64,000 bases of DNA from Gaiellaceae bacterium (GTDB taxonomy: Bacteria > Actinomycetota > Thermoleophilia > Gaiellales > Gaiellaceae), in NCBI GenBank assembly GCA_036259875.1, contig DATAAZ010000024.1, forward strand, positions 7,997 through 71,996, written 5' to 3'. Every line of letters starts with the position of its first letter. The stretch's first letter is position 1. The position numbers and the translations under genes were made by a program. The notes beneath the pieces were generated by a model, which worked only from the letters and a program-made list of their open reading frames with translations, made no database searches and was not told the origin of the DNA. Of this stretch, positions 9,932 to 52,894 are shown in pieces.

Positions 9932-11028
9932 CGGCATTCGCCCTCGCGGCGCGCTCGTTCATCGTCCAGCTCGTCGCCGTCGCGGTCGGCGTCGTCGTGT
10001 CCGTCACCCTCCTCGCGCTCGTCGGGACGTCACCCACCGACGCGCTCGAGGCGCTACTCCGCGGCGCCTTCGGGACGGACTTCGCGCTTACGCAGACCGT
10101 GCTGAAAGCGATCCCGCTTGCCCTCTGCGGCCTCGCGGTCGCCGTCCCGCTCCTCATGCGCCTCTGGAACATCGGTGCCGAGGGTCAGTTCCACGCCGGC
10201 GCGATCGGGGCGACGTTCGCGGCGCTGTCAGCGCCGGAGTGGCCCGCGGCGGCGCTCCTTCCGGCCATGATCGGCGCCGGGATGGCCGCCGGCGCCCTTC
10301 TGGCGCTTGCGGCCGCCGTCCCGCGCGCGCTCTGGGGCGTGAACGAAATCATCACGACGCTCCTCCTCAACTACGTCGCGATCCTCGCGGTCGCCTACCT
10401 CGTCATCGGCCCGTGGCGCGGCGCCGAGAGCTTCAACTTCCCGGTCAGCGACCTCTTCTCGCCCGCGGCGGCGCTGCCGCGCCTCGGATCCAGCCAACTG
10501 CACCTCGGCGTCTTCTTCCCCCTGATCGCGGCCGCGATCCTCGTCTTCCTGTTGCACCGCTCGCCTTGGGGTTTCGAGGTGCGGATGATCGGCGCGAGCC
10601 CGGGCGCCGCCCGTGCTGCCGGGATGTCGACCCGCAAGAACGTCGTCGTCGTCATGCTCGTCGCAGGTGCCCTCGCCGGCGTTGCGGGGATGGTCGAGGT
10701 CTCGATGACCTTCGGGCGGCTCCAGCAGGGAATCAGCCCCGGCTACGGCTACATGGCGATCGTGATCGCCGCGCTCGCGGGTGGGAACGTGCTCGGGACG
10801 CTCGCCGCCGCGATCCTCTTCGGCGGCTTCGTCGTCGGCGGCTTCGCGCTCCAGACGCTCGGCGTTCCGCAGGCGTTCGTCCTCATGCTTCAGGGGATCA
10901 TCCTCTTCTGCGCGCTCGCCGGGGCACGCCTGGCCGGCTCGCGACTGACGCCGTGGCTGCCGCTTCGGCTGCGGCGCGGTGAGGCCGGCGAGGCGGCGCT
11001 CCAGAAGGAGGAGCCGTCGATACCCTGA
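9928..11028 (+). CDS. ABC transporter permease (BMP/nucleoside system)
   Basis: 366-aa polytopic ORF; GTG 9928 overlaps the upstream stop (GTGA). WNIGAEGQ and the overall hydrophobicity are typical of this permease family. Confidence 0.88.
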   Translation: MTAFALAARSFIVQLVAVAVGVVVSVTLLALVGTSPTDALEALLRGAFGTDFALTQTVLKAIPLALCGLAVAVPLLMRLWNIGAEGQFHAGAIGATFAALSAPEWPAAALLPAMIGAGMAAGALLALAAAVPRALWGVNEIITTLLLNYVAILAVAYLVIGPWRGAESFNFPVSDLFSPAAALPRLGSSQLHLGVFFPLIAAAILVFLLHRSPWGFEVRMIGASPGAARAAGMSTRKNVVVVMLVAGALAGVAGMVEVSMTFGRLQQGISPGYGYMAIVIAALAGGNVLGTLAAAILFGGFVVGGFALQTLGVPQAFVLMLQGIILFCALAGARLAGSRLTPWLPLRLRRGEAGEAALQKEEPSIP

Positions 11029-11090
11029 CCACCCTTCTGACCGCCGCCGTCGCGGCCGGCACACCCCTCCTCTTCGCCGCGGTCGGGGAG

Positions 11091-11939
11091 GTGGTCGCCG
11101 AGCGCGCGGGCGTCATCAATCTCGGCCTGGAGGGGATGATGCTCGTCGGCGCCGTCCTCGGCTTCCTCGCGATGAACGAGACCGGCTCGGCGGTGACGGG
11201 CGTCCTCGCCGCGCTCGCCGCGGGCGCAGCCGCGGCCACCGTCCATGCCTTCTTCTCCGTCACGCTGAAGGCGAACCAGATCATCTCGGGGCTCGGCCTC
11301 ACGATCGCAGGGACCGGCCTCGCCGCGATCTTGGGCGGCTCGGTCGTCGGCGTCCCGGCGCGGGACAGCTTCGGGGACGTCTCGCTCCCGCTGCTCGGGT
11401 CGATCCCCGGCGTCGGCGAGATCCTCTTCCGCCACCACGCGCTCGTCTACGTGGGCTTCCTGCTCGCGCCGGCAGTCTGGGTCGTCCTCCGACACACGCG
11501 GCTCGGCCTCCACCTGCGCGCCGTCGGCGAGAACCCGGCCGCGGCCGACGCGATGGGCGTCTCCGTCGCCGCATACCGTTACGGCGCCGTCCTCTTCGGC
11601 GGCGCGCTCGCCGGCCTGGCCGGTGCGTCGCTCTCGCTCGCGGAGGCGCCCGGGTGGAGCGAGGGGATGACCGCCGGGCGCGGCTGGATCGCGCTTGCCC
11701 TCGTCATCTTCGCGACGTGGGATCCGCTGCGCGCGCTCGTTGGAGCCTACTTCTTCGGAGCGCTCGACGTGCTCGGTTTCCGCGCGCAAATCATCGGCGT
11801 CGACATCCCCTCGACGGTGCTCGGGATGATTCCGTACGTCGCGACGATCCTCGTCCTGATCGCGGTCACGGTGCTCGGGGCGCGCAAGCGACTCGGAGCG
11901 CCGGACGCGCTCGGCGTCCCCTACCTGCGCGAGAGCTAG
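11091..11939 (+). CDS. ABC transporter permease (second permease; real start probably upstream, CTG 11025)
   Basis: GTG 11091 is the first canonical start. The same frame is open from 10983 and encodes the conserved N-terminal segment TLLTAAVAAGTPLLFAAVGE before it. CTG 11025 overlaps the upstream stop (CTGA) and follows GGAGGAG. The 3' end and frame are secure. Confidence 0.85.
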
Positions 11940-12967
11940 CTCCGCTCGAGCTGCGCGTCGAGCTCGTCGAGCTCGCGTTCGAACCCGCGGCGCATGCGCT
12001 GTTTCTCGTCGTCGCTCATCCACGAGCCGTCGACACCGTTCAAGACGAACTCGCGCACCGTCTCCGGGCCCCAGCCAGCGGCCTGGACCATCCCGACGTA
12101 CTCCTTGCCGATGTCGGTGTGGAACATCGGCGGATCGTCGGAATTGATCATGATTTTCAGGCCCTCGTCGGCCATCTGGCGGATGGGGTGCTTCGTGAGG
12201 TCGTTCGGGTCGAAGTAGCAGACCGCCGTGGCAGTCGGGCAGACCGTGAACGTGATCCCCTCGTCGCGGCAGCGCTGGACGACGCTCTCGTCGCCGAGAA
12301 CGTGGTACCCGTGGTCGATCCGCTCGACGCCGAGCACGTCGAGGCAGGTCGTCACGTTCTTCGCCGGCGCGTCCTCACAGGCGTGCGCCGTGAGCCGAAG
12401 CCCGCCCTCGCGCGCCATCCGGTACGCCTCGGTGAACTTCTCGGGGGGGTCGGGAGCCTCGGCGCCGTCCATCCCGAGGCCGATGAGCTCGTCGCGCCGG
12501 TGCTCGAGGACGTCGCGCACCATGTCGTTCGCGACCTCGGGCGCGTCCTGCCGGTACACGTCGGCGATCAGGCGGCATTGAACGCCGAAGTCCGTCTCCG
12601 CCGCCCGGATCCCGTCGACGAGGCCGTCGACGACGGTCTTGTAGGGGACGCCGCGCCGAGTGTGAAGGGTCGGGTTGAAGAACATCTCCCGGTACTTGAG
12701 GTTGCCGAGCTTGACCCCGTCCTCGATCGACTCGTAGGCCGTGCGCGCGAAGTCGTCCTGGTCGCGCAGCGTCGACGAGACCATCCCGAAGATCTTCAGG
12801 AATTCGTAGATCGAGTCGTAGTCGTAGAGCCGGTCCGCGTCGTCGGTCGGCAGCTCGACGCCGTGCTTTCGCGCGAGCTCCGCAAACGTCTGCGGGCGGA
12901 CCGTACCCTCGAAGTGGCAGTGGAGCTCGACCTTCGGTACGCGCCGCAGGTACTCCTCGTACGTCAT
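11936..12967 (-). CDS. add: adenosine deaminase
   Basis: ATG 12967 is preceded by GGAGGAGCGG. MTYEEYLRRVPKVELHCHFEGTVRP is the classic Add N-terminus, and INSDDPPMFHT lies near the C-terminus. Confidence 0.92.
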   Translation of the reverse strand: MTYEEYLRRVPKVELHCHFEGTVRPQTFAELARKHGVELPTDDADRLYDYDSIYEFLKIFGMVSSTLRDQDDFARTAYESIEDGVKLGNLKYREMFFNPTLHTRRGVPYKTVVDGLVDGIRAAETDFGVQCRLIADVYRQDAPEVANDMVRDVLEHRRDELIGLGMDGAEAPDPPEKFTEAYRMAREGGLRLTAHACEDAPAKNVTTCLDVLGVERIDHGYHVLGDESVVQRCRDEGITFTVCPTATAVCYFDPNDLTKHPIRQMADEGLKIMINSDDPPMFHTDIGKEYVGMVQAAGWGPETVREFVLNGVDGSWMSDDEKQRMRRGFERELDELDAQLERS

Positions 12968-12981
12968 CCGCTCCTCCTCGG

Positions 12982-14097
12982 CTATCCGGGCAGCTTGCCT
13001 TCGACGCCCTCGACGAACCAGTTCCAGGCCACGAACTCCTCGAACGAGATCTCGTGCCCGTCCTCGAAGCGAACCTTCCCGGACTGGTCCCTGATCGGTC
13101 CGACGAACGGATTGAAGCTCCCGTCCTTGAACCCGGCGAGCATTTCGTCGACCTCCGCGCGAACGTCCTCGGGAACCGACTCGCCGTAGGGCGCGAGCTC
13201 GACGCTGCCGTCGGCGAGCGTCCCCCAGTAGTCCTCGGACTTCCACGTTCCGTTCTTCGCTTGCTCGACGCGCTCCGCGTAGTGCTCGCCCCAGTTCAGG
13301 ACGACGGCCGAGAGGAACGCCTCGGGGCCGAAGCGCGTCATGTCGGAGTTCCACGTCGCGGCGTACTTCCCGTTCGCGGCCGCCGCCTGGAGGACCGAAG
13401 GGCTGTCCTCGATCCCGAAGAGGACGTCGGCTCCCGCGTCCATGAGCGAGGTCGCCGCCTGCTTCTCCTTGGGCGGGTCGAACCACGTGTTGATGAAGAG
13501 CATCTTGACGCGGATCGACGGATCGATGCTCCGGGCACCGAGCGTGAAGGAGTTGACGTCGCGAATCACCTCCGGAATCGGGAACGAGCCGACGTACCCG
13601 AGCGTCTTCGTCTTCGTCATGTGCCCGGCGATCACGCCGAGGAGGTAGGAGGGCTCCCAGTGCTGGACGAAGTACGTCGAGACGTTCTCGGCACGCTGGA
13701 GCCCCGTCGCGTGCTCGAAGAGTACGTCGGGATGCTGCTGCGCTTTCTGGATGACCGTCTCGCCGTAGCCGAAGCTCGTGGCGAAGATCATCTTGTTTCC
13801 CTGCGCGATCAGCTGGTCGATCGCAGGGCCCGAGTTCGCCTCCGGGACGCTGTCGAGCGCGGTCGTCTCGATCCCGTCGACGTTCTCCTCGAGGTACTTG
13901 CGCGCCTGGTCGTGCTGGTACGTCCAGCCCGCGTCACCCGGCGGGCCGATGTAGATGAACCCGACCTTGAACGGCTCGCCGCCGCCCCCGGCGGCCTCGT
14001 TGCCGCCGCCGCCGCCTCCATTGTCGTCGCCCCCGCAGGCCGCTAACGAGAGCGCGAGGGCGAAGGCCGAGAGCAGAGCGACGAGCGAGCGGAACAT
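12982..14097 (-). CDS. BMP-family ABC transporter substrate-binding lipoprotein
   Basis: 371 aa; ATG 14097 is preceded by GAGGAGGAT. It has a lipobox signal (LALSLAACGG) and a BMP body (FKVGFIYIGPPGDAGW, FATSFGYGE, NTWFDPP). It is a paralogue of 3575-4765. Confidence 0.9.
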   Translation of the reverse strand: MFRSLVALLSAFALALSLAACGGDDNGGGGGGNEAAGGGGEPFKVGFIYIGPPGDAGWTYQHDQARKYLEENVDGIETTALDSVPEANSGPAIDQLIAQGNKMIFATSFGYGETVIQKAQQHPDVLFEHATGLQRAENVSTYFVQHWEPSYLLGVIAGHMTKTKTLGYVGSFPIPEVIRDVNSFTLGARSIDPSIRVKMLFINTWFDPPKEKQAATSLMDAGADVLFGIEDSPSVLQAAAANGKYAATWNSDMTRFGPEAFLSAVVLNWGEHYAERVEQAKNGTWKSEDYWGTLADGSVELAPYGESVPEDVRAEVDEMLAGFKDGSFNPFVGPIRDQSGKVRFEDGHEISFEEFVAWNWFVEGVEGKLPG

Positions 14098-14178
14098 CGA
14101 TCCTCCTCGAAGGGTTGCGCAGCGAGGCGAGCTTATAACCGCGACGGCGCGATGGGAAATCGGCTCGCCGAGCGGCGC

Positions 14179-14955
14179 CTACATGCCCATCGCGTGGTAG
14201 CCGGAGTCGACGTAGAGGATCGTGCCGGTCACGTTTCGCGCCTCGTCCGAGAGCAGGAACGCGGCCGCCGCGCCGACGTCCTCCGAGTCGATGTTGCGCC
14301 GGAGCGGCGAGCGCTCCTCGACGATCGACTCCATCGTCGGGAAGCCCGCGATCGAGCGCGCCGCCAGCGTCCTGACCGGGCCCGCCGAGACGGCGTTGAC
14401 CCGGATGTCCTTCTCGCCCAGGTCCCACGCGAGGTAACGAAGCGAGGCGTCGAGCGCCGCCTTCGCGACGCCCATGACGTTGTAATGCGGCACGGCGCGC
14501 TCGCCGCCGAGGTAGGTCATCGTCAGGATCGAGCCACCGCCGGCAGCCTGCATGAGCGGCTCGGCGGCGCGCGCACACGCGACGAGCGAGTAGGCCGAGA
14601 CGTCGAGTGCGAGCCAGTAGCGGTCGCGTGGCGTGTCCGTGAACCGGCCCTCGAGGTCGCGCGCATCCGCGAACGCGACGGAGTGGACGAGGAGGTCGAG
14701 CCGGCCGTCGAACGCCTCGGCGACCTCGGCGAAGACGCGCTCGACGTTCTCGTCGGAGCGAACGTCGCATTCCGCGACGAGCGGGGAGGAAACGGTCGAG
14801 GCAAGCTCGCGTACGTTCTTCTCGATGCGCTCGCCCTGGTAGGTGAACGCGAGCGTCGCGCCGCCGTCCGCGAGCTCCTGCGCGATCGCCCATGCGATCG
14901 ATCGCCTGTTGGCGACGCCGAGGACGAGGCCTCGCTTACCCGCGAAGTCCGGCAC
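14179..14955 (-). CDS. fabI: enoyl-[acyl-carrier-protein] reductase (NADH), FabI
   Basis: GTG 14955 gives 258 aa. GKRGLVLGVANRRSIAWAIA, YNVMGVAKAALD and the C-terminal YVDSGYH are FabI signatures. Confidence 0.9.
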   Translation of the reverse strand: MPDFAGKRGLVLGVANRRSIAWAIAQELADGGATLAFTYQGERIEKNVRELASTVSSPLVAECDVRSDENVERVFAEVAEAFDGRLDLLVHSVAFADARDLEGRFTDTPRDRYWLALDVSAYSLVACARAAEPLMQAAGGGSILTMTYLGGERAVPHYNVMGVAKAALDASLRYLAWDLGEKDIRVNAVSAGPVRTLAARSIAGFPTMESIVEERSPLRRNIDSEDVGAAAAFLLSDEARNVTGTILYVDSGYHAMGM

Positions 14956-14963
14956 GGCGGCGG

Positions 14964-14969: not shown

Positions 14970-14971
14970 AG

Positions 14972-15556
14972 GTGCGCAGCGTGTCCGTCGAGAAGCTGAA
15001 CGGCAAGGAGACGTCACGCGGCTCCCTCCGCGTCGCCGCCGTGCGGCGCGGCCGGTTTCCCGAGGAGCGAGACGCGGTCGTCTCCCTCGACGGCGAACCC
15101 GTCGTCCGGCTCAAGCACTTTTCCGGTCGGCGCTCGGCGCGCGTTTCGCCGTGGATCGAGGCGACCGTCGCCCGTGACGACGAAGCGCTCGCGGCGGAGC
15201 TCGTGCGGGCGCTCGCCGACCTCCTGCCGCCCGGGGGCTACCTGATGATCGGCTACGGCGACGACGAGACGGAGCGCGGGCTGAAGCGCCGCTTTCCGCC
15301 CGTTGCGACCCCGCTCGGAAAGGCGCTCTTCGACGCCGGCGCGACGTGGTTCAAGGATTGGTACTACCCCGAGGGCTGGATGGAAGGCGGCATGAAGCTT
15401 CAGGGGAACAAGGCCGTCTCCGAGGAGGCGCGCCGCACGCACCTCGCCGAGCTTCGCGCCGAGGTGGAGGAGTGGCTGCGGCGGGTGGGCGACGAGGACG
15501 ACGCGCTCGTCCGACGAGCGCGGGAGCGGGCAGAGGCTGCGCTGGCGAGCGAATGA
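14972..15556 (+). CDS. conserved hypothetical protein
   Basis: Strong GC3 bias and protein-like composition (LMIGYGDDETERGLKRRFPP, WFKDWYYPEGWMEGGMKLQG). The start is uncertain (GTG 14972 or 14981); the earlier part of the raw ORF overlaps fabI antisense. The stop overlaps the next start (ATGA). Family not recognised with confidence. Confidence 0.55.
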   Translation: MRSVSVEKLNGKETSRGSLRVAAVRRGRFPEERDAVVSLDGEPVVRLKHFSGRRSARVSPWIEATVARDDEALAAELVRALADLLPPGGYLMIGYGDDETERGLKRRFPPVATPLGKALFDAGATWFKDWYYPEGWMEGGMKLQGNKAVSEEARRTHLAELRAEVEEWLRRVGDEDDALVRRARERAEAALASE

Positions 15557-16437
15557 AGGCCCTCGCGCACGACGTCTTCACATATCCACTCCCGCCTGGG
15601 CACCGGTTTCCGCTCGGCAAGTACCGGCGCGTCCGCGAGGGCGCGGAAGCGGCCGGGCTCGACGTCCAGGACGCCCGCGCCGCCACGCGCGCGGAGCTTC
15701 GGCTCGCGCACGACGCCGCGTACCTCGACCGCGTCGAGGCGGGCCGCCTGAGCCGGCGCGAGGAGCTTGCGCTCGGGCTTCCCTGGTCGCCGGAGCTCGT
15801 CGAGCGCGCCCGCCGCTCGGTCGGGGCGACGATCCTCGCCGCGGAGGTGGCGCTCGCGGACGGCGTCGCGGCCAACGTGGGCGGCGGGACGCACCACGCG
15901 TTCGCGGACGGGGGTCGCGGCTTCTGCGTCTTCAACGACGTCGTCGCCGCCGTTCGCGCGCTTCGTGCCGCGCTCCGCGTCCGCCGCGCGATCGTCGTCG
16001 ACCTCGACGTCCACCAGGGCGACGGAACGCACGCCGCCTTCCTCGGCGATCCCGAGACGTTCACCTTCTCGGTCAACGGCTTCCGCAATTACCCGTTTCG
16101 CCGCGTGCCGGGCGACCTCGAGCTCGAGCTTCCCGACCGGACGGGCGACGACCAGTACCTGGACGCGCTCGGGCGCCTCCTCGCGCAGGCGCTCGCGCGC
16201 GCCAGACCCGACGTCTGCTTCTACCTCGCCGGCGCCGATCCGTACGAGCGTGACCGGCTCGGGCGTCTTGCCCTCACGAAGGAGGGCCTCGCAGCCCGCG
16301 ACCGGCTCGTGCGCGACGCACTCGCCCGCGCAGGCGTCCCCGTCTGCGTGACGCTCGCGGGCGGCTATGCCGACCCGATCGAGGACACGGTCGACATCAA
16401 CCTGACTACGCTCCGGATATTCGCGTCGCGGTCGTAA
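15553..16437 (+). CDS. histone deacetylase-family (HDAC/acetoin-utilisation type) amidohydrolase
   Basis: ATG 15553 overlaps the upstream stop. NVGGGTHHAFADGGRGFCVFND and VVDLDVHQGDGT are the HDAC catalytic motifs. Confidence 0.88.
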   Translation: MKALAHDVFTYPLPPGHRFPLGKYRRVREGAEAAGLDVQDARAATRAELRLAHDAAYLDRVEAGRLSRREELALGLPWSPELVERARRSVGATILAAEVALADGVAANVGGGTHHAFADGGRGFCVFNDVVAAVRALRAALRVRRAIVVDLDVHQGDGTHAAFLGDPETFTFSVNGFRNYPFRRVPGDLELELPDRTGDDQYLDALGRLLAQALARARPDVCFYLAGADPYERDRLGRLALTKEGLAARDRLVRDALARAGVPVCVTLAGGYADPIEDTVDINLTTLRIFASRS

Positions 16438-17171
16438 CCGGAGGCTCGAGCGGGATTGGCGCCGCACTCGCGAGGCGCCTCGCCGCAGACGGGTGGCGCT
16501 GCGTCCTCGTGGCGCGCGGGCGCGAGCGGCTCGAACGCGTCGCATCCGAGCTGGGCGCCGAAGCCGAGGTCTGCGACGTGGCCGATCGCGCCGCGGTCGA
16601 CGCGACGGCGCGGCGGGTCGGCGAGCGGCACGCCGCCGTGCACCTGCTCGTCAACAACGCGGGCGTAGCGGCCGGCGGCGGCTACCTCGACGTCTCGCCC
16701 GCACGGATCGAGGAAGTGACGCGAGTGAACTATCTCGGCGGCGTCTGGTGCCTGCGCGCGTTCCTGCCGCTTCTCGAGCGAGCCGTGCCCTCGGATGTCG
16801 TGAACGTCGCCTCCGTCGCCGGGACGGCCGTGGGGCAGACGTCGGGCCCGTATGCCGCCTCGAAGCACGCGCAGATCGCGTTCTCGCGGGCGATCGCGGC
16901 GGAGCTCGCACCGCGCGGGATCCGGGTCCACGCGATCAACCCGGGGCCCGTGCCGACACCCGGCTTCCCGCAGGAGCGCGCCCTCAACCACCGCTGGAGA
17001 CGGCGCTTCGTCGTCAGTCCCGACGACGTGGCGAGGGCGATCCTCCACGCGGTCGCGCGCAATCGCCGCGAAATCTTCGTGCCGCGCGTATTCCGCCTCG
17101 CCGCGGCCGCACAGGGGATCGCCCCCGCCACAATGACTCGCGTCGCTGCGAGGCGCGGCTGGGGCCGATGA
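16419..17171 (+). CDS. short-chain dehydrogenase/reductase (SDR); start inferred at ATT 16419
   Basis: The Rossmann motif VAVVTGGSSGIGAAL (16425-16469) lies upstream of the first canonical start (GTG 16509). NNAG and YAASKHA catalytic motifs lie downstream. The 3' end and frame are secure; the start codon identity is uncertain. Confidence 0.8.
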   Translation: MRVAVVTGGSSGIGAALARRLAADGWRCVLVARGRERLERVASELGAEAEVCDVADRAAVDATARRVGERHAAVHLLVNNAGVAAGGGYLDVSPARIEEVTRVNYLGGVWCLRAFLPLLERAVPSDVVNVASVAGTAVGQTSGPYAASKHAQIAFSRAIAAELAPRGIRVHAINPGPVPTPGFPQERALNHRWRRRFVVSPDDVARAILHAVARNRREIFVPRVFRLAAAAQGIAPATMTRVAARRGWGR

Positions 17172-22920: not shown

Positions 22921-23970
22921 CTAATCGATCCGGCGCTCGCCCGCCCGGGCCTTGCGCTCGCGGCGCGCGAGCTCGAGCGCCTGCTCGCGCGTCGAGATCG
23001 TGCCCGCCGCCCGCTCCTCGGCGATCCGGTCGAGAACGCGCCCGATCTCCGGCCCCGGCGGGAGCCCGAGCTCGTCGCCGCGCACGAGCGGCTCGACAGG
23101 GTCCTCAGCGCGAGCGGCGCGTACCGCGGGCGCGAGGTCACCTGCCCCCACGAACGCGAGCGCCTCGAGCGACCACGGCTCCGTCGCCCGGCGGAACCGA
23201 TGGATCTCGCGCGGCGAGTCGTCGGCCGGCCGCTGCACGGCCAGAAGCTTGGCGGCGAAGCGGCGCGTCGCGTTCGACACGGGCAGCCGAAACAGCGCTT
23301 CGCCGAGGCAAACGACGAGGAGGTAGTCGGGGTGAGGGGCCGGCTCGACGGCGTCGAGCCGATCGACCGAGCCGCCGAGCCGCGCGAGCAGACCCAGCTC
23401 GTCGAGCCGGCGCCATCCGGCGGGTGAGAGGCGACGGAGCTCCGCGAGGATCCGCTCGCCCGCGGGCCAGGTCGCGACGTCGGCGTGGCTGCGAACCAGG
23501 CCCTCGGTGTGGGGGTCGACCGCGAGCCCGAGCTCGTCCTCGAGCCGGACGGCGCGAAGCAGCCGGAGCGGGTCGTCCCGGAAGACGGTGTCCGAGACGG
23601 CGCGCAGCACGCCGGCCCGTAGGTCGCGCCGGCCACCCAGCGGGTCGACGTGCGTCTGGCTTCCGACGGGGCGCGCGATTGCGTTTACGGTGAAGTCGCG
23701 CGTGCGAAGGTCGTCCTCGATCCCGTCGAAAAGCGGCGTGAAGTCGACCGTCCGCCCGTCGGGGAACGCGACACGCCACGCCCCGTGGCGGTCGGAGAGA
23801 GCGAAGACCGCGCCCCCGAACCGTCGGGCGTAGGCGCGCGCCGCCCGGCGCGGGTCGCGGCAGGCGACGTCAAGGTCGACGACGGGCCGCCCGAGCAGCT
23901 CGTCGCGAACCGCGCCGCCGACGACGTACGCGTCCGACCCGGCGACCGAGGCGAGCTCCGCCTCATCCAT
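22921..23970 (-). CDS. cca: CCA tRNA nucleotidyltransferase / poly(A) polymerase head-domain protein
   Basis: 349 aa. YVVGGAVRDELLGRPVVDLDV and RDFTVNA are class-II nucleotidyltransferase motifs. Confidence 0.85.
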   Translation of the reverse strand: MDEAELASVAGSDAYVVGGAVRDELLGRPVVDLDVACRDPRRAARAYARRFGGAVFALSDRHGAWRVAFPDGRTVDFTPLFDGIEDDLRTRDFTVNAIARPVGSQTHVDPLGGRRDLRAGVLRAVSDTVFRDDPLRLLRAVRLEDELGLAVDPHTEGLVRSHADVATWPAGERILAELRRLSPAGWRRLDELGLLARLGGSVDRLDAVEPAPHPDYLLVVCLGEALFRLPVSNATRRFAAKLLAVQRPADDSPREIHRFRRATEPWSLEALAFVGAGDLAPAVRAARAEDPVEPLVRGDELGLPPGPEIGRVLDRIAEERAAGTISTREQALELARRERKARAGERRID

Positions 23971-25030
23971 CGACGACCCGCCTCTCCGCTCGCTCCGGCG
24001 CAGTGCGGATGCCGCACGTCACCTCGTAGTTGATCGTCCCGAGCACGCGCGCGTGGTCCTCGGCGAGAACGCCGTCGCCGATCAGCGTGACGGGCGCGCC
24101 TTCCGGCTCGTCCTCCAGCTCGACGGCGAACGAGTCCATGGAGACGGTCCCGACGACGCGCCGCCGCCGCCCGTCGACGACGACCTCTGTCCCCGTGAGT
24201 CCGCGGCGGAACCCGTCCGCATAGCCGACGGGAACGAGGCCGATCCGCGTTCTCCGCTCAGCGACGAACCGCCGCCCGTAGCCCGTGCTCTCGCCGGGCG
24301 CGAGCGTTCTCGTCTGCGCGACGTAGCTTCGCCACGAAAGGACGGGCTCGAGCCCGTCGGAGGCGGGATCGCGTCCGAACGGCGAGAGGCCGTAGACGGC
24401 GATCCCGCACCGCACGGCGTCGAAGCGCGCCTCGGGGAACCGGAGCGCTGCCGCACTGTTCGCCACGTGGCGCGTCACTCCCTCGAAGCGCTCGGCGAGC
24501 GCGCGGAACGCCTCGAGCTGGCGTCGGGCGAACGACTCGTCGGGCTCGTCCGCGGTCGCGAGGTGGCTCATGAGGCCGACGACCGCGTCGCGCGGGACGG
24601 CGAGAGCGTCGTCGGGGGTCATCCCGAAGCGCCCCATGCCCGTGTCGACCTTCAGGTGCACGCGGGTGCGGGCCGGGACGTCGGGGCGCGAGACGGCTAC
24701 CTCCAGGGCGGCGTCGCGCGCGCGCGAGTCGTCTCCCGGCTCGAGCGGCCCCATGACGAGCATGCGGACGTCGGGGAACAAGGGGCGGAGAGCCGTGCCT
24801 TCGCGCACCGTCGCGACGCAGAGTCCCTGGGCGCCGGCGGCGAGCGCGGCGCGCGCGCACTCGGACGCGCCGTGCCCGTACCCGCCCGCCTTGACGACCG
24901 CCCAGACCTCCGCCGGGGCGGCTGCCTCGCGAAGCCGCGCGACGTTTCTCCGCAGCGCGCCGAGGTCGACCGTGACCTCGGATCGGCGGCGGGGAGCGCG
25001 CGCGGGAGCCGATGGCGGGAAGGCGCTAAT
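23963..25030 (-). CDS. alr: alanine racemase; 5' end anomalous (no canonical start upstream of the PLP-lysine region)
   Basis: The frame is open from TGA 25042-25040 (minus). It encodes SEVTVDLGALRRNVARL and the PLP-lysine motif WAVVKAGGYGHG upstream of the first canonical start (GTG 24808). The C-terminal body (PVGYADGF, VSMD) is typical Alr. The start shown is the only in-frame near-cognate codon (ATT 25030). Confidence 0.8.
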   Translation of the reverse strand: MSAFPPSAPARAPRRRSEVTVDLGALRRNVARLREAAAPAEVWAVVKAGGYGHGASECARAALAAGAQGLCVATVREGTALRPLFPDVRMLVMGPLEPGDDSRARDAALEVAVSRPDVPARTRVHLKVDTGMGRFGMTPDDALAVPRDAVVGLMSHLATADEPDESFARRQLEAFRALAERFEGVTRHVANSAAALRFPEARFDAVRCGIAVYGLSPFGRDPASDGLEPVLSWRSYVAQTRTLAPGESTGYGRRFVAERRTRIGLVPVGYADGFRRGLTGTEVVVDGRRRRVVGTVSMDSFAVELEDEPEGAPVTLIGDGVLAEDHARVLGTINYEVTCGIRTAPERAERRVVDG

Positions 25031-25041
25031 TTCCGGGCATC

Positions 25042-25806
25042 ATGGCGAACCGCTCCGTCGGCGTGGACTTGACGGGCCGGCGCGCGCTCGTGACGGGTGC
25101 GGCGAGCGGGATCGGCGAGGCATGCGCGCGCCGCTTCGCCGCCGCAGGCGCCGAGGTGACCGTGCTCGACGTCGACGGCGAGCGAGCCACCGCGCTCGCC
25201 GCGGCGATCGGCGGCCGGTCGCTCGAGGCCGACCTCGCCGAGCCGGCGATCCTCGACGCGCTCGACCTCGACACCGACATCCTCGTGAACAACGCCGGCT
25301 TCCAGCACGTCGCGCCCGTGTACGAGTTCCCCCCGGAGACGTTCGCGCGCATGGTTCGCGTGATGCTCGAGGCGCCGTTTCGCCTCGTTCGCGCAACGCT
25401 CCCCGGGATGGTCGAGCGGGGTTACGGCCGGGTCGTCAACATCTCCTCCGTCCACGGCGTCCGCGCGTCGCCCTTCAAGGCGGGGTATGTCGCCGCGAAG
25501 CACGGCCTCGAGGGGCTCTCGAAGGTCGTGGCGCTCGAGGGCGGCCCGCACGGTGTCACATCGAACTGCGTCTGCCCCGCGTTCGTGCGAACGCCGCTCG
25601 TTGAGAGCCAGGTCGCCGACCAGGCGCGCACGCACGGGATCTCCGAGGACGAGGTGATCGAGGAGGTCATGCTCGTGAAGCCCGTGATCAAGCGACTGAT
25701 CGAGCCCGAGGAGGTCGCCGAGCTGGCGCTTTTCCTCTGCGCCCCGGAAGCGTCGTTCCTGAACGGAACCTCACTCGTGATGGACGGCGGCTGGACGGCG
25801 CAATGA
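25042..25806 (+). CDS. bdhA: 3-hydroxybutyrate dehydrogenase-like SDR
   Basis: 254 aa. ALVTGAASGIG, NNAGFQHVAPV, YVAAKHG and CPAFVRTPLV are typical of BdhA-type SDRs. Confidence 0.82.
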   Translation: MANRSVGVDLTGRRALVTGAASGIGEACARRFAAAGAEVTVLDVDGERATALAAAIGGRSLEADLAEPAILDALDLDTDILVNNAGFQHVAPVYEFPPETFARMVRVMLEAPFRLVRATLPGMVERGYGRVVNISSVHGVRASPFKAGYVAAKHGLEGLSKVVALEGGPHGVTSNCVCPAFVRTPLVESQVADQARTHGISEDEVIEEVMLVKPVIKRLIEPEEVAELALFLCAPEASFLNGTSLVMDGGWTAQ

Positions 25807-28997: not shown

Positions 28998-29699
28998 TTA
29001 GTCGAGCGCAGGGCTGACCGTGAGCGTCATGACCTCGCTCGGCTCCCGCTTTCCTCTCAGCTGCAGCCGTCTTCGCGGGACGTTTGAATCGAGACCGGCG
29101 GCCGCCGCAGCGTCGCTGGTGACGAGGATCTCGCCGGTCTTCGCCTCCGAGGCCAGGCGAGCCGTCGTGTTCACCGCGTCTCCGAGCGCGGTCAGCTCGG
29201 TGCGCGTCCCCGAGCCGACCGCCCCCACCCAGGCCGTCCCGGTATGCACACCAGCGCCGAGCGGGACCCAGGGGCCATCGGGGTCGAGGTGTCCGGTCGC
29301 TTTGAGGAGCGCACGCGCCGCCTCGATCCCGCGAGCAGCGTGCCGCCGACCGCTGAGCAGCGGAAAGAACATCGCGACCAGCTCGTCGCCGACGAACTTA
29401 TCGACGACGCCGTCGTATTCGAAGACGGTCGCTCCGGCGGTGTCGTAGAACGCGTCCATGAGCCGGCGGAAATCAGCCGGGCGCATTCCCTCCGCAAGCG
29501 CCGTCGAGCCGCGGACATCGGCGAAGAGCATCGTGACCTCGATCTCGGGACCGCCGTGGTGGCGCGACATGAACGTGAAGCAGGACGCGCACCAGTTCGG
29601 ATTCTTCTCGGACGGCCGCTTCCCGATCAGTCGCATCAGCGGTGCGCCAGCGCCGCCGAACGGCGCCGCGCACAGTCGGCAGCGCGGGTCGCGCGGGAT
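28998..29699 (-). CDS. class III adenylate/guanylate cyclase with N-terminal zinc-ribbon; start inferred at ATC 29699
   Basis: The cyclase core contains VTMLFADVRGST, KFVGDELVAMF and GDAVNTTARL. The frame is open to TGA 29801-29799 (minus) and encodes FKLIPRDPRCRLCAAPF, the first CxxC of a CxxC...CxxC ribbon, upstream of the first canonical start (ATG 29636). Confidence 0.78.
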   Translation of the reverse strand: MPRDPRCRLCAAPFGGAGAPLMRLIGKRPSEKNPNWCASCFTFMSRHHGGPEIEVTMLFADVRGSTALAEGMRPADFRRLMDAFYDTAGATVFEYDGVVDKFVGDELVAMFFPLLSGRRHAARGIEAARALLKATGHLDPDGPWVPLGAGVHTGTAWVGAVGSGTRTELTALGDAVNTTARLASEAKTGEILVTSDAAAAAGLDSNVPRRRLQLRGKREPSEVMTLTVSPALD

Positions 29700-29859
29700 G
29701 AGCTTGAAGACGCGCCTGCCCGCATGCTCTTTGGGTGGCCGCGGGTGAGAAACTCGCGCAGAACTCCTCGCTTTCCCGGCCGTGCGGCGGGTTCGAGGTC
29801 ACACCACCTCCACCCGTGAGGGTAGCGCCGCCAAGGAGCGGCGCCGCAATGCCGTGCGG

Positions 29860-48081: not shown

Positions 48082-48129
48082 TGCCCTCTCCCTCCTAGGT
48101 CGGTTCCGTCCCGAGAAATCCGGCTCGGA

Positions 48130-48158: not shown

Positions 48159-48210
48159 CCAAGCCGTTTCCCTTCGACTCGCGTCACGACGAGCAGCAAC
48201 GACGGCGCGC

Positions 48211-48744
48211 TCATCCCGCGGCCACGTCGGCCGCGCGGAAGAGCGCGTGCAGACGAACTGCGTGGCGTGCGAGAGCGTCGGCACCGCCCTCCTCGCGGTC
48301 AACAACGCAGACGGCCCGACGACACTCGAGCCCCGCGTCGCGAAGGCCGCGCACGGCCGCGACGGCGGCACCGCCGGTCGTGACGACGTCCTCGACGAGG
48401 CAGACCCGCTGGCCCGGCTCGAAGACACCCTCGATCCGTCGCTCCGTGCCGTATGTCTTCGCATCCTTGCGAACGATCAGGAACGGCGTCCCGGACGCGA
48501 GCGCGGCGGCGGCTGCCAGCGCGACGGCGCCGAGCTCGGGCCCGGCGAGGAGATCGGGCCGCTCGCCGTCGCCGGCAAGCGCGCTCGCAGCGAGCCGCGT
48601 CCCGAGCTCGCGCAGCAGGACCGGGTCCGTTTCGAACCGGTACTTGTCGAGGTAGTAGCGGGATCGTCGCCCCGATCGGAGGAGGAAATCGCCCTCGAGG
48701 TAGGCCCGCTCGCGAAGCAGGCGGACGACCTCGGCGTCCGTCAA
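48211..48744 (-). CDS. pyrE: orotate phosphoribosyltransferase
   Basis: 177 aa; TTG 48744 overlaps the upstream stop (TTGA). GDFLLRSGRRSRYYLD is present, and the PRPP loop is VCLVEDVVTTGGA. Confidence 0.92.
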   Translation of the reverse strand: MTDAEVVRLLRERAYLEGDFLLRSGRRSRYYLDKYRFETDPVLLRELGTRLAASALAGDGERPDLLAGPELGAVALAAAAALASGTPFLIVRKDAKTYGTERRIEGVFEPGQRVCLVEDVVTTGGAAVAAVRGLRDAGLECRRAVCVVDREEGGADALARHAVRLHALFRAADVAAG

Positions 48745-48965
48745 CGGCCGGCCGAGCGCGCCGCGGAAGCGCCGCGCGCCGCGGCCACCAGGTCTTCCGC
48801 GATCGCGAGCATGCGATCTGCCTCGGCGTCGCCCGCCGCGAGCGACACCATCGATCCGTCGTCGAAATAGAGATCGGCGTGCGCTCGCCGCCCGCTTCGC
48901 CGACGCCAGACGCTGAACGCCGCGGCCGCGCCGGCGGCCGCGGCCCAGGCCGCCGCCCTATTCAT
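48741..48965 (-). CDS. small hypothetical protein with N-terminal hydrophobic segment (74 aa)
   Basis: GC3-biased. AAAWAAAAGAAAAF is followed by RRRSGRR and ADLYFDDGSMVSL. The gene is coupled on both sides (8-nt and 4-nt overlaps). Confidence 0.5.
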   Translation of the reverse strand: MNRAAAWAAAAGAAAAFSVWRRRSGRRAHADLYFDDGSMVSLAAGDAEADRMLAIAEDLVAAARGASAARSAGR

Positions 48966-49395
48966 CGTCGGCCTCGCGCTCGTGCCGCTCGCGTGCCCGC
49001 TCGCTCGTTCCGGCTCCCGCCGTTTCGCGCTCCTCGCGTGCCGCGCTCGTGTCGGGATCCGTCAGTCGTAGGCAGGTCTTCAGGTCGTAGAAGACGAGCC
49101 CGACGGTCGGCTCGGACCCGGTGACGGCCGCAACGGCTCGCTCCCCGTCGCGAACGAGAAAGACGGCGCCCGCGGGCGTGGCCGCGAGGACCTGAGAGAG
49201 CTCCGCGCGCCCGGTCGCGGCGCTCGAGCGGCGCGCCGCTTGCAGGAGCTCGCGCGCATGCGCTGCCACGGCCTGCGACCGGCCGTCGTCGGAGAACGTC
49301 GAAGCGAGCAGCGTCCCGTTCTCGCGGACAAGCACGGCCCCGTCGATCTGAGACGAGACCGCCGCCAGGTCGGCCAGCGCCTGTCCCGCGTTCAT
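48958..49395 (-). CDS. roadblock/LC7 (MglB-like) domain protein
   Basis: ATG 49395 (alternative GTG 49413). ALADLAAVSSQIDGAVLVRENGTLLAST has the typical roadblock N-terminal pattern, and the tail is acidic. Confidence 0.65.
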   Translation of the reverse strand: MNAGQALADLAAVSSQIDGAVLVRENGTLLASTFSDDGRSQAVAAHARELLQAARRSSAATGRAELSQVLAATPAGAVFLVRDGERAVAAVTGSEPTVGLVFYDLKTCLRLTDPDTSAAREERETAGAGTSERARERHEREADDE

Positions 49396-49403
49396 GGCGC
49401 CGG

Positions 49404-49409
49404 AACCTA
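49404..49409 (-). promoter_or_regulatory. candidate -10 hexamer (TAGGTT) 8 nt upstream of ATG 49395
   Basis: The minus strand reads TAGGTT-ccggcgcc-ATG and fits TANNNT. Confidence 0.35.
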
Positions 49410-49557
49410 CCACGACGTCGAGCGTGCTCGGCCGGGCGCGTGGTATGAACCCGTCGAATGACGTCCAGCCCGTCGACCGGCCGTCTCAGACGGACGTCCG
49501 GGCGGAGCCCGGCCGCCGCGACCGCCGGCGCCGCCAACTCGTCGCGGTAGGGACCAG

Positions 49558-50385
49558 ATGGCGATCAGCGCGGCCGCGCGCACCCGAACGGTCCGGATCG
49601 GCGTCGCGGCGGTCGTCGAGAAGTTCCTCGCCGATCGCGGCACGCACCTCGCCGCGATGATCGCCTACTTCGCGATCCTCGCGTTCGTGCCGCTCCTGTT
49701 CCTCGCGCTGTCGCTGTTCGGGCTCGCGGGCGAGCAAGACGAGTCGAGCTACCTCGTCGAGGAGCTCCGGCGGAGCTTCCCGGCGAGCTCGGTCGACCGG
49801 CTGGTCGCCGTCGTCGAGACGATCCAGGAGAGCTCGACCGAGCTCGGGATCGTGGGTGGGGTCGCGCTGATCTGGGCGGCGCTCGGGTTCTTCAGCGTGG
49901 TCGAGTCGGCGCTGAACATCGTCTACGGCCTGCCGAACAGGCCGTTCATCCGCCAGAAGCTCTTCGTCCTCGCGCTGACGGCGGCGGCGCTCGCGCTTCT
50001 CTTCGCCGCGCTCGTGGTCGCCTCGGTCGGCATCCGGCTCGCTCGCAACGCGGCGTACGTCGGCGGCGCCCTCGCGTACGTCTACGGGATCGCAGTCTCG
50101 ACGGCGCTCGTCCTCGTCTTCGTCTGGAGCGTCTACACGCTTCTCACGAACGTGCGCCTGCGCTGGCGCGAGACGCTACCGGGAGCGGTCTTCGCCGCAA
50201 TCGTGCTGCAGGCGAGCTTCCAGCTCCTGCCGATCTTCGTGCACGCCTCGAGCGGCCTTGTCGCGCTCCAGGCCTTCGGCGGCCTCGCGCTCCTCCTCCT
50301 CTGGATCTACCTGATGGCGAACGTGCTCGTGATCGGCGCCGAGCTCAACTGGTGGCTCTCACGCCGGCGCGTGGAAGGCTCATGA
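49558..50385 (+). CDS. YihY/BrkB (ribonuclease BN-like) family membrane protein
   Basis: 275 aa. HLAAMIAYFAILAFVPLL and SALNIVYG are present, with multiple TM segments. Confidence 0.82.
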   Translation: MAISAAARTRTVRIGVAAVVEKFLADRGTHLAAMIAYFAILAFVPLLFLALSLFGLAGEQDESSYLVEELRRSFPASSVDRLVAVVETIQESSTELGIVGGVALIWAALGFFSVVESALNIVYGLPNRPFIRQKLFVLALTAAALALLFAALVVASVGIRLARNAAYVGGALAYVYGIAVSTALVLVFVWSVYTLLTNVRLRWRETLPGAVFAAIVLQASFQLLPIFVHASSGLVALQAFGGLALLLLWIYLMANVLVIGAELNWWLSRRRVEGS

Positions 50386-50466
50386 GCCGCGGCGGCGCAT
50401 TGACCGTCGGTTCAACCGGCGGACGAGCCAGGTCACCCGCCTCGCGACGGGGGCCGGGGCGGCGCC

Positions 50467-50916
50467 TCAGCTGACGGGCTCGGCGGTCGTGAGCGTCGGA
50501 TCGTCGGCCGTCACGAGGACGCGCTTCGCGAGCGCGCGCAAGACCTTCCGCTCGACCTCGGGATTGCGATCGACCATCCCCCAGAACGCTTGACGCGTGA
50601 GGACGAAGAAGCGGAGCGGCTTCGTCGCCGTCACCGTCGCCGTGCGCGGGATGTCCTCGAGAAGCGCAATCTCTCCGAAGAAGTCGCCGTCCGAGAGCGT
50701 CGAGAGCCGGCGGCCCTGGCGCGTCACCTCGACGTCGCCCTCGATGATGACGAAGAACTCCTGGGCGGGCTCCCCCTCGCGGCAGAGCACCTTCCCTTCT
50801 CCGACCTCGAGGTCCTCCGTCACCCTTGCCAGCTGCTGGAGCTCGTCCTTCGAGAGGTCGGCGAAGAGCGGCGCCCGCCGGAGCGAGTCGACCTTCGTGT
50901 CGTGCGAGAAAAGCAC
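50467..50916 (-). CDS. stand-alone cyclic nucleotide-binding domain protein
   Basis: 149 aa from GTG 50916. The cNMP-binding cassette is FFVIIEGDVEV...GDFFGEIALL...PRTATVTA. Confidence 0.88.
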   Translation of the reverse strand: MLFSHDTKVDSLRRAPLFADLSKDELQQLARVTEDLEVGEGKVLCREGEPAQEFFVIIEGDVEVTRQGRRLSTLSDGDFFGEIALLEDIPRTATVTATKPLRFFVLTRQAFWGMVDRNPEVERKVLRALAKRVLVTADDPTLTTAEPVS

Positions 50917-50922
50917 AGGCGA

Positions 50923-50928
50923 AATCTA
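50923..50928 (-). promoter_or_regulatory. candidate -10 hexamer (TAGATT) 6 nt upstream of GTG 50916
   Basis: The minus strand reads TAGATT-tcgcct-GTG. The hexamer overlaps the rdgB stop codon. Confidence 0.4.
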
Positions 50929-51522
50929 CAACGCTCGCGCGGGCGCTCCCAATCCCTCGGCGAGCGCCCGCGCCGCGCGCGCCCGGTGGCTGTGGCGCGC
51001 CTTCCAGCCGTCCCCCAGCTCGGCCACCGTCCTCGTCTCGCCGTCGGGCACGAACACGTGGTCGTACCCGAAGCCGCCCGAGCCGCGTGCCTCGCGGGCG
51101 ATCCGGCCAGAGAGCTCGCCGCGGGCGGCGACCTCCCCCCCGTCCGGCGTACGGCAGACGAGCTCGCAGACGTAGCGCGCGCGCCGCCCCTCGGCCTCGA
51201 TGCCATCCAGCTCGGCGAGGAGCTTCGCGACGTTGTCGGGGTCGGACGCCCGATCGCCGGCGTAGCGCGCCGACCGAATCCCTGGCCCGCCGCCGAGCGC
51301 CTCCACCTCGAGCCCCGAGTCTTCACCCGCGACCCAGGCGTCGGGCGCATGCGCCCGCCCCAGCGCTGCCTTCGCGCGCGCGTTCTCGGCGAACGTCGCA
51401 CCGGTCTCGTCCGGGAACGCGATACCGCTCAGGAGCTCGAAACTCCAGCCTGGAAGCGCGCGCTCGAGCTCCCTTGCCTTGTGCCGGTTGCCGGACGCGA
51501 GGAGGAGCTTCAGGCGGACCAC
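50926..51522 (-). CDS. rdgB: non-canonical purine NTP pyrophosphatase RdgB/HAM1
   Basis: 198 aa, with LLLASGNRHKAREL, GEDSGLEV and GFGYDHVF. Confidence 0.92.
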   Translation of the reverse strand: MVRLKLLLASGNRHKARELERALPGWSFELLSGIAFPDETGATFAENARAKAALGRAHAPDAWVAGEDSGLEVEALGGGPGIRSARYAGDRASDPDNVAKLLAELDGIEAEGRRARYVCELVCRTPDGGEVAARGELSGRIAREARGSGGFGYDHVFVPDGETRTVAELGDGWKARHSHRARAARALAEGLGAPARAL

Positions 51523-52199
51523 CGCGCGGCGATCACGTCCTCGCGCACCGAGAGCTCCTCGACGAGGTCGCGCTCGCTCGTACCCATCGGCAGGTCGACC
51601 TGGAGGCGAAGGCGACGGCGATCTTCCTCGGCCTCGAACTCAAGGTTTCCGATCCGCACGCGGCGCATCTTCACGACGTCGACGATGGGCGTGACCGGCG
51701 TCGCGACCCCCAGCTCGAGCTCGAGGACGCCCGCCTCGCCGCCGAAGCGGTTGATGGCGCGCTCGATCCAGCGGAACGGGCCGAGCCCGACGATCACGAT
51801 CGCCGTTCCGATCAGGGCGGCGGTGTAGAACCCGGCCCCCGCCGCCATGCCGATCGCGGCCGCGACCCAGAGCCCGGCGGCGGTCGTGAGGCCGCGCACG
51901 GAGAGCCCCTGGCGGAGGATCGCACCAGCGCCGAGGAAGCCGATCCCGGTGACGATCTGCGCCGCGATCCGGGTCGGGTCGAGGACGGTCCCGCGCGAGC
52001 GATCGAAGACGAAGTCGCCCCACGCGTACGCGGACACGAGCGTGAAGAGCGCGGCGCCGACGCCGACGAGCATGTGCGTGCGTAGTCCCGCCGCGCGCTC
52101 GCGGAGCTCGCGCTCGAGGCCGATTGCTCCGGAAAGCGCCGCGGCGACGAGCAGGCGAAGGGCGACGTCGAGCGCGCCGATGTCCGGCGCTACGTCGAT
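51510..52199 (-). CDS. mgtC: MgtC/SapB family membrane protein; start inferred at ATC 52199 (or 52181)
   Basis: LRLLVAAALSGAIGLERE is the MgtC signature, and GFLGAGAIL and TTAAGLW are present. No ATG/GTG/TTG lies in frame between 52496 and the signature. GGGAGG lies 10 nt upstream of ATC 52199. Confidence 0.8.
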   Translation of the reverse strand: MDVAPDIGALDVALRLLVAAALSGAIGLERELRERAAGLRTHMLVGVGAALFTLVSAYAWGDFVFDRSRGTVLDPTRIAAQIVTGIGFLGAGAILRQGLSVRGLTTAAGLWVAAAIGMAAGAGFYTAALIGTAIVIVGLGPFRWIERAINRFGGEAGVLELELGVATPVTPIVDVVKMRRVRIGNLEFEAEEDRRRLRLQVDLPMGTSERDLVEELSVREDVIAARWSA

Positions 52200-52894
52200 G
52201 AGGCGATCGCCTCCCGCTGGGCCTGCGCGAGCTCGTCGATTCCCCGACGGGCGAGCGTGACGAGCTCGCCGAGCAGCTCCGTGCTGAACGGTTTGCGCTC
52301 CGCGGTTGCCTGGATATCGACGACGTCGCCGGCAGCGGTCATCACGACGTTCATGTCGACGTCGGCGGACGAGTCCTCGTCGTAGTCGAGGTCGAGGAGA
52401 GCTTCGCCCTCGACGATCCCGAGCGAGACCGCCGCGACCTGCTCGTCCGGATCCGGCAAGCCCCGCCGCTGCGCCGCGAGGGCGAGCGCGATCCACGCGC
52501 CGGTCACCGCCGCCGTCCGCGTCCCGCCGTCGGCCTGGATGACGTCACAGTCGAGCCAGACGGTCCGCTCGCCGAGCCGGCGAAGCTCGTATGCGACGCG
52601 GAGCGCGCGTCCGATTAGCCGCTGGATCTCGACCGTCCGGCCCTTCTGGCGCCCCTCGCTCGCCTCGCGGCGGATCCGCGTGCCGCCCGAGGCGGGGAGC
52701 ATCCCGTACTCCGCGGTCAGCCAGCCCTGCCCGCGCCCCTCGAGCCAGCGCGGGACGCCGTCCTCGACCGTCGCCGTGCAGAGGACGCGCGTCCGCCCGA
52801 CCGAAATGAGCGCCGAGCCGTGCGCCTGCTCGACGAACCCAGGGAGGATCTCGACCTGCCGGAGCTCGTCCGGGCGCCGGCCCGTTCGCGTCAC
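52190..52894 (-). CDS. rph: ribonuclease PH
   Basis: GTG 52894 overlaps the murI stop (GTGA); 234 aa. GRRPDELRQV, GWLTAEYGMLP and DCDVIQADGGTRTA are present. Confidence 0.93.
   Translation of the reverse strand: MTRTGRRPDELRQVEILPGFVEQAHGSALISVGRTRVLCTATVEDGVPRWLEGRGQGWLTAEYGMLPASGGTRIRREASEGRQKGRTVEIQRLIGRALRVAYELRRLGERTVWLDCDVIQADGGTRTAAVTGAWIALALAAQRRGLPDPDEQVAAVSLGIVEGEALLDLDYDEDSSADVDMNVVMTAAGDVVDIQATAERKPFSTELLGELVTLARRGIDELAQAQREAIASST

Follow-up and report, generated by a model that had tools for sequence, protein, structure and literature searches.

Four genes in one stretch of a Gaiellaceae (Thermoleophilia) genome have no ATG, GTG or TTG where their orthologues start. They are a second ABC permease, a short-chain dehydrogenase (SDR), alanine racemase (alr) and mgtC. 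We argue that all four are most likely translated from near-cognate codons with an ordinary initiator tRNA, that a fifth gene of similar appearance, a zinc-ribbon adenylate/guanylate cyclase, is a broken gene with a GTG start, and that the signature is family-wide and touches about 2-3% of genes. We put the probability of this reading at roughly 0.6. The stretch, called the window below, is 64,000 nucleotides (nt) long and covers positions 7,997-71,996 of contig C24 (genome G000), with about 72% G+C. The host genome is a metagenome-assembled genome (MAG) of 2.77 Mb in 79 contigs, 91% complete. Start sites were placed by codon-by-codon reading and by Pfam domain limits on stop-to-stop translations, and coding onset was taken from a codon-usage model trained on the genome itself. 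This model counts about 63 genes in the window, not the "about 72" of the initial annotation. The closest alr genes in public records all come from MAGs labelled Gaiellaceae, Gaiellales or Thermoleophilia.

The initial annotation claimed that in five genes of the window the conserved N-terminal sequence precedes the first in-frame ATG, GTG or TTG. Codon walks and Pfam limits agree on this for all five, and the sites lie where it had put them. Each gene, in its own frame, lacks a canonical start between the upstream stop and the conserved N-terminus. This is beyond chance, since the homologous N-terminus does carry ATG, GTG or TTG in the orthologues (150 of 155 for alr, 80 of 111 for the SDR, and most for mgtC and the permease). 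With the exception of the cyclase, the open reading frames (ORFs) are otherwise intact over 230-355 codons and have full Pfam domains. Three of the genes sit at operon junctions, while alr and the cyclase are the first genes in their transcription direction. The missing starts, their orthologous positions, their conservation and the geometry of the junctions are plain observations.

The SDR is the strongest of the five cases.

16419-17171, plus strand: SDR read from ATT 16419, N-terminus (M)RVAVVTGGSSGIG
16435-16437, plus strand: TAA stop of the upstream histone-deacetylase-like gene (15553-16437; PF00850), 16 nt downstream of the ATT

The SDR frame is open from 16254, its first canonical start is GTG 16509, and position 1 of the Pfam adh_short profile is at 16422. 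ATT 16419 is the exact orthologous start codon. The 80 orthologues with a canonical codon have it just before (R/K)VAVVTG; 28 have near-cognate codons only and 3 have none. ATT is found at this place in eight MAGs, namely this genome and at least seven others (L082, L084, L078, L077, L145, L092 and L029). It consists of the last base of one codon followed by TT from a conserved TTC (Phe) codon, both in the tail of the histone-deacetylase-like gene that overlaps the SDR. That tail is readable in five ATT genomes, four relatives and this one, and the upstream codon there is ATA, CTA or ACA. The encoded amino acid varies, yet the third base is always A. Three canonical-start orthologues of the same set (GTGA or TTGA) have C instead of A. 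Only 4.1% of third positions in the genome are A, and ATA, CTA and ACA account for 0.03-0.15% of all codons. Since so rare a base stands there in every ATT genome that could be read, it seems to be held by selection for the ATT. The SDR start thus appears to be kept through rare A-ending codons. A second clade of Gaiellaceae takes the SDR start from GTN-TGC (Val-Cys), close to the end of a different upstream gene: the start is N-TG, where N is G, T or C, giving GTG, TTG or CTG starts. CTG is found in about 16 loci. A synonymous Val change (GTG, GTT or GTC) in the upstream gene thus rewrites the start of the downstream SDR. The GTN-TGC arrangement was seen in L118, L228, L125, L128, L120, L129, L154, L134, L100, L221, L200, L215, L210 and L109.

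Another possible explanation is programmed ribosomal frameshifting from the upstream gene or a short upstream ORF, which would yield fusion or shifted products with no independent initiation. The SDR frame is indeed the -1 frame of the histone-deacetylase-like gene, and upstream of both alr and rnc (see below) lies a short ORF that begins with ATG and ends in a stop overlapping a near-cognate codon. However, inspection found no slippery heptamer at any junction (no dedicated motif search was run), and a -1 fusion of the histone-deacetylase-like gene and the SDR was rejected for this reason. Orthologues with ATGA, GTGA or TTGA overlaps clearly initiate independently at the same codon. The upstream ATG of rnc is found in this genome and in none of 13 relatives. 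The cyclase would need two shifts within 45 nt, and its orthologue is read in a single frame. We consider frameshifting very improbable.

The permease is the second junction at which a near-cognate start fits.

11025-11939, plus strand: second ABC permease (BPD_transp_2) from candidate CTG 11025, with CTG 11037 as the alternative
11007-11013, plus strand: Shine-Dalgarno sequence (SD) GGAGGAG, 11 nt before CTG 11025 and still within the 3' end of the upstream permease gene
11026-11028, plus strand: TGA stop of the first permease gene (9928-11028), overlapping CTG 11025 as CTGA

The frame is open from 10983 and has no ATG, GTG or TTG until GTG 11091. The BPD_transp_2 domain begins at residue 23, about 11049, and the codon model puts coding onset at 11013. 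The first permease gene ends GAG GAG CCG TCG ATA CCC TGA, and the only start-like codons in the frame of the second are the CTG of the overlap and CTG 11037. The closest orthologue (L243 of G034, 75% identity) has the same GGAGGAGCC...ACCCTGA arrangement, including both GGAGGAG and the CTGA overlap. More distant orthologues have ATGA or GTGA overlaps at the junction. CTG 11025 is at the stop overlap, yet it is 5 codons downstream of the start of the distant orthologues.

The third junction is that of rph and mgtC.

51510-52199, minus strand: mgtC read from ATC 52199 (MgtC domain from 52154 by Pfam; coding onset 52202 by the codon model)
52210-52215, minus strand: SD GGGAGG, 10 nt upstream of ATC 52199
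52190-52192, minus strand: TAG stop of rph (RNase PH, identified by Pfam), overlapping GTA 52193 as GTAG

The mgtC frame is open from 52544. Its first usable canonical start, ATG 52073, comes after the start of the domain, and the far-upstream GTG 52496 opens an Arg-rich stretch that does not look coding. Orthologues have ATG or GTG 7-10 nt after a GGAGG-type SD, overlapping the rph stop as GTGA. The junction here has a 9-nt insertion relative to them, and rph ends in TAG. In position, GTA 52193 corresponds to the ATG or GTG of the orthologues, and ATC 52199 is two codons upstream of it. In the relative L242 the codon is ATA, within ATAG and exactly 7 nt after its SD, which we read as an independent near-cognate start at the same junction.

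The initial annotation suggested for these three genes that termination-reinitiation coupling could tolerate near-cognate codons. Near-cognate initiation, probably coupled, fits all of them, and comparative evidence backs two. An SD was claimed for two of the three and is present in the permease and mgtC. The geometry is a 4-nt overlap (CTGA) for the permease, a start 16 nt before the upstream TAA for the SDR and a 10-nt overlap for the ATC of mgtC. Since CTG 11025, ATT 16419 and ATC 52199 lie within or overlap the last codons of the upstream gene, ribosomes ending that gene would be delivered to the junction start by translational coupling or termination-reinitiation. This delivery would make a weak start codon tolerable, with the SD assisting in the permease and mgtC. 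Because the start codon shares bases with the upstream codons, drift or pressure for G+C at third codon positions (GC3) could rewrite it. One route would be a change from GTG-TGC to GTC-TGC upstream, which turns the start from GTG to CTG. Another would be a swap of the upstream stop from TGA to TAG, by which NTG becomes NTA. In the SDR, by contrast, the ATT would be actively maintained. We infer both that translation really starts at the near-cognate codons and that coupling is the reason.

The two 5'-proximal genes were ascribed in the initial annotation to indels or ribosomal frameshifting. This is supported for the cyclase and finds no support in alr. The alr features are as follows.

23963-25030, minus strand: alr, an intact ORF by codon walk and Pfam, with candidate start ATT 25030
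24989-24991, minus strand: CGC, aligned with the start codon of the orthologues
25026-25043, minus strand: five-codon mini-ORF ATGATGCCCGGAAATTAG (ATG...TAG) upstream of alr

The frame is open from 25039 and its first canonical start is GTG 24808, at residue 78. The Ala_racemase_N domain begins at residue 24, so the lysine that binds pyridoxal phosphate (PLP) lies between the two; the codon model puts coding onset at about 24979. The 150 orthologues with ATG, GTG or TTG have it 1-3 codons before RSE(I/V)T(I/V)DL, and L138 has a CTG on the start codon. The ancestral start region reads CGC CGC CGA TCC GAG here, with the ATT 13 codons upstream. That ATT is the only near-cognate codon upstream, and its last base is shared with the TAG of the mini-ORF. 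ACG 24973 and CTG 24955 are also near-cognate but lie within strand beta-1. No near-cognate start codon is conserved at this place in the relatives compared.

A one-base indel does not account for alr. No frame has an ATG, GTG or TTG in the 60 nt before the conserved block, and the start region differs from the relatives by several substitutions and not by one base. L075, the only syntenic relative with the same mini-ORF, uses an in-frame ATG. The out-of-frame ATGATG that was taken as the sign of an indel is not evidence of one: the first ATG of the mini-ORF overlaps, on the opposite strand, the ATG (25042) of a divergent SDR gene. A one-base indel would need the ATGs of the mini-ORF, and would also add a 20-residue non-conserved leader of poor codon usage. 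The divergent SDR gene is the upstream neighbour here and in L075; in most relatives this neighbour is NAD(P)HX-dehydratase-like, an identity taken from alignment only. The plus strand at 25020-25044 reads CGCTAATTTCCGGGCATCATG, in which TAATTT, a TANNNT-like hexamer, stands 9 nt ahead of the divergent SDR's ATG. This motif is conserved in L075 and fits a leaderless or near-leaderless transcript.

Since alr has a single homologue in the genome and is intact, it is probably translated. We suppose that it lost its ancestral start through several substitutions. ATT 25030 is the leading candidate for its start, at somewhat less than even odds, and another near-cognate codon seems an outside chance; the rest of the weight goes to no translation or to a start beyond verification.

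The cyclase is a different matter.

28998-29802, minus strand: zinc-ribbon adenylate/guanylate cyclase, frameshifted twice near the 5' end, start GTG 29802
29755-29763, minus strand: first frame break, TTCTGCGCG here against TTCTGGCGC in the orthologue, one G missing
29711-29725, minus strand: second frame break, four bases fewer than in the orthologue within ATGCGGGCAGGCGCG

Its frame is open from 29798 and the first in-frame canonical start is ATG 29636. The first zinc-ribbon CxxC is upstream of this ATG and the Guanylate_cyc domain proper begins after it. GTG 29802 lies in another frame and is preceded by GGAGG (29811-29807). Translation in three frames gives an N-terminus spread over all of them, (M)TSNPPHGRESEEF / REFLTRGHPKSMRA / RRVFKLIPRDPRCRLC, and the segments MTSNPPHGRESEEF / REFLTRGHPKSMRA / RRVFKLIPRDPRCRLC match the single-frame sequence of the orthologue L244 (74% identity), which is read in one frame from a GTG with GGAGG before it. 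Relative to L244 one G is missing near 29757 (TGG to TG) and four bases near 29715. The cyclase starts at a canonical GTG and therefore ATC 29699, proposed as its start, is displaced. We read this gene as a pseudogene or a local assembly error, with no non-canonical start.

Two rival readings were weighed. The first is that the genes are start-loss pseudogenes, decaying and either without translation or making only truncated products that are inactive. The break in the cyclase is plain to see, and it has many paralogues in the genome, and the alr start region is heavily diverged, with an upstream extension that is non-coding-like by codon usage. However, the other four ORFs are intact, alr is the sole copy in a genome that also carries murC, rare codons keep the ATT of the SDR in place across genera, and essential genes show the same signature (rnc across the family; ispD, murC and purC here). 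Pseudogenes are therefore an unlikely account of the four. The second is that the missing starts are consensus or assembly errors of the MAG, either wrong bases or 1-nt indels, and that the organism itself is canonical. This would be in line with the fragmented and incomplete assembly, with the two cyclase frame breaks within 45 nt and with a scan that found 39 internal sites in the 2.77 Mb where strong coding potential changes frame without a stop, 25 of them with no start codon nearby. These sites are candidate internal frameshifts, due either to gene decay or to faulty assembly. But the same codons are found in independent MAGs from other projects (seven for the SDR ATT, one for the permease CTGA, thirteen for rnc), the alr start region has diverged by many substitutions, and the SDR, permease and mgtC junctions differ from their relatives by in-frame changes and not indels. 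With only 39 internal frame switches, random indels are too rare to hit this many 5' ends: the internal rate predicts about 5 such hits genome-wide, against 69 flagged genes (below). Assembly error is more unlikely still than gene decay as an explanation for the four genes, which we continue to read as translated from near-cognate codons.

The signature was first presented as an unusual frequency in this window. It is not peculiar to it. To be flagged in a strict screen, a gene had to show at least 12 coding-like codons, together worth at least 8 nats, ahead of its first canonical start and to have no canonical start in the 35 codons upstream. Genome-wide, this applies to 69 of 2393 genes (2.9%). 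The same pipeline applied to the relatives' loci (1.83 Mb) flags 3.7% of genes, with some selenoprotein fragments included. A count based on orthologues around alr gives about 1-2% per gene, the SDR apart; w28646, w27364 and w15006 were rejected as extra families in that baseline because they were artefacts of a mis-set coding onset. Together these point to a start signature in roughly 2-3% of genes, family-wide in the Gaiellaceae. Given the genome and family background, the four genes of the window are therefore somewhat above it, yet consistent with it. Four-nt overlaps number 224 GTGA, 121 ATGA, 37 TTGA and 104 CTGA in the genome. CTGA junctions with no alternative canonical start nearby number 22, versus 382 ATGA, GTGA and TTGA junctions. 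Among the hits is also the downstream half of a peroxiredoxin with an in-frame TGA (window 1417-1887), which is split likewise in L120, L206, L095 and L234.

Ten candidates were picked by hand, and in all ten the Pfam domain begins before the first canonical start.

C64:4484-5134, minus strand, outside the window: rnc (RNase III); relatives' loci L251-L263
C50:7184, C12:60048, C25:28070, C6:77278, C6:72404, C59:34258, C26:20195, C29:11543 and C29:33745 (G000): the nine others, in the same order ispD, murC, purC, a MogA-like gene, a SAM hydroxide adenosyltransferase, a GT4 glycosyltransferase, a metallophosphoesterase, a GalT-like gene and an ECF sigma factor

Beyond the window, RNase III gives the clearest example. 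In 13 of 14 genomes, from the Gaiellaceae and a sister family, rnc follows acpP after a spacer of 28-43 nt with no ATG, GTG or TTG in any frame. The spacer here has a single out-of-frame ATG that is unique to this genome. The conserved N-terminus is CTG ATC in 12 genomes and CTC ATC in 2, so the ATC is invariant; in more distant genomes GTG or TTG is found. It looks as if a housekeeping gene has a non-canonical start throughout the family. Several of the nine other candidates are at CTGA overlaps, and ispD in the relative G006 likewise has no canonical start.

An unusual initiator tRNA was considered and rejected. The tRNA-fMet is ordinary, with the C1:A72 mismatch and three G-C pairs in the anticodon stem. 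Across the whole genome aragorn finds 39 ordinary tRNAs, including tRNA-Sec, along with odd calls with a four-base (acga) and a two-base (gg) anticodon that are probably artefacts. The gene infC was also examined as a clue and gave nothing decisive, as its ATG is in frame and follows a short ORF, the TGA of which overlaps that ATG (ATGA). Around C78 57780-57810 a strong SD, AAGGAGGG, precedes an ATT, a TTG and a GTG, in that order, in the other frame that forms this short ORF. The sequence GGAAATTAG resembles the motif upstream of alr.

Several points weigh against near-cognate starts. The case for translation from them is built from comparative sequence. No second assembly of the same species was found, the best alr match in a scan of genome and metagenome contigs being at 76% identity. 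The 2-3% figure comes from this genome and its relatives. A first, looser screen that flagged 196 genes was discarded, as it was contaminated by genes with rare-codon N-termini that do possess a canonical start (gltX, rpsR, a sigma factor). Ribo-RET in another high-GC actinobacterium, Mycobacterium tuberculosis, found that CTG, ATT and ATC are not enriched at start sites (PMC9094748). Individual genes raise their own doubts. The G034 permease has a TTG at the place of CTG 11037, four codons downstream of its own CTG. In mgtC the start is ambiguous between ATC 52199, GTA 52193 and ATC 52181. L075 has the GGAAATTAGCG motif and the equivalent mini-ORF, yet its own in-frame ATG for alr, and the 19-codon alr extension from the ATT has poor codon usage. 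Finally, no SD precedes the ATT of the SDR. None precedes the canonical SDR starts of the relatives either, and its absence would be consistent with reinitiation, on the model of PMC6728339 and PMC12548453, by ribosomes terminating 16 nt downstream.

A wider version of the argument is that the Gaiellaceae lineage has relaxed or differently tuned start selection. Here 2-3% of genes would start from CTG, ATT, ATC or ATA, mostly at overlapping junctions and driven by GC3 pressure on the upstream codon that overlaps the start, with essential genes included (rnc across the family; alr, ispD, murC and purC in this genome). We hold this only tentatively, and think it rather doubtful as a whole. If it is true, current models, which are built on E. 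coli and mycobacteria, greatly underestimate how readily ribosomes delivered by coupling accept near-cognate codons.

Such starts also matter in practice. Gene callers such as Prodigal use ATG, GTG and TTG only, to our knowledge, so that their products of these genes would lack the Rossmann loop, the PLP lysine or the first membrane helix. A few percent of the proteins of each Gaiellaceae MAG would be cut, with false calls of "truncated" genes or "pseudogenes" and wrong metabolic inferences, in a soil family that is abundant and almost uncultured. To the classic infC example, the SDR and RNase III would add two non-canonical starts that are likewise conserved. A simple evolutionary route is visible in the junction alignments, by which synonymous drift or a stop swap upstream rewrites a downstream start. 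If the starts are confirmed, the Gaiellaceae would be a natural system for seeing how far coupling relaxes start choice.

Near-cognate starts themselves are known, and these genes are added as further cases. The infC and pcnB genes of E. coli start with AUU, and CTG, ATT, ATC and ATA are among the initiators of NCBI table 11. Such starts make up about 0.1% of E. coli genes, against our estimate of about 2-3% in the Gaiellaceae. As in infC and pcnB, a codon one base from AUG stands at the start position of an otherwise ordinary gene, and as in infC, the ATT of the SDR is evolutionarily conserved. Unlike in those genes, the codons here are mostly in overlapping junctions, and the genes are metabolic or housekeeping and not an autoregulated initiation factor. 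Near-cognate start codons have been measured in E. coli by Hecht et al. (bioRxiv 10.1101/063800), whom the introduction of PMC9094748 cites in calling such starts rare.

Translational coupling by termination-reinitiation at overlapping gene pairs has been described by Huber et al. 2019 (PMC6728339) and in a 2025 review (PMC12548453). The junctions discussed here resemble those pairs in being co-directional, and in that their stops and starts overlap or are separated by a few bases (CTGA for the permease, GTAG or 10 nt for mgtC, a 19-nt overlap for the SDR), and the SDR junction resembles many of them in having no SD. They differ in that the described pairs use ATGA or TGATG with canonical starts, and the review does not mention near-cognate starts. 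It is plausible that coupling relaxes the choice of start codon, a proposal that we make from the junctions compared here.

A further parallel is Deinococcus deserti. Its proteogenomic re-annotation reportedly found ATC and CTG starts from N-terminal peptides, so it too is a bacterial lineage with several non-canonical starts overlooked by gene callers. The Gaiellaceae belong to a different phylum, and their candidate starts, unlike those peptide-based ones, have been recognised by comparing sequences.

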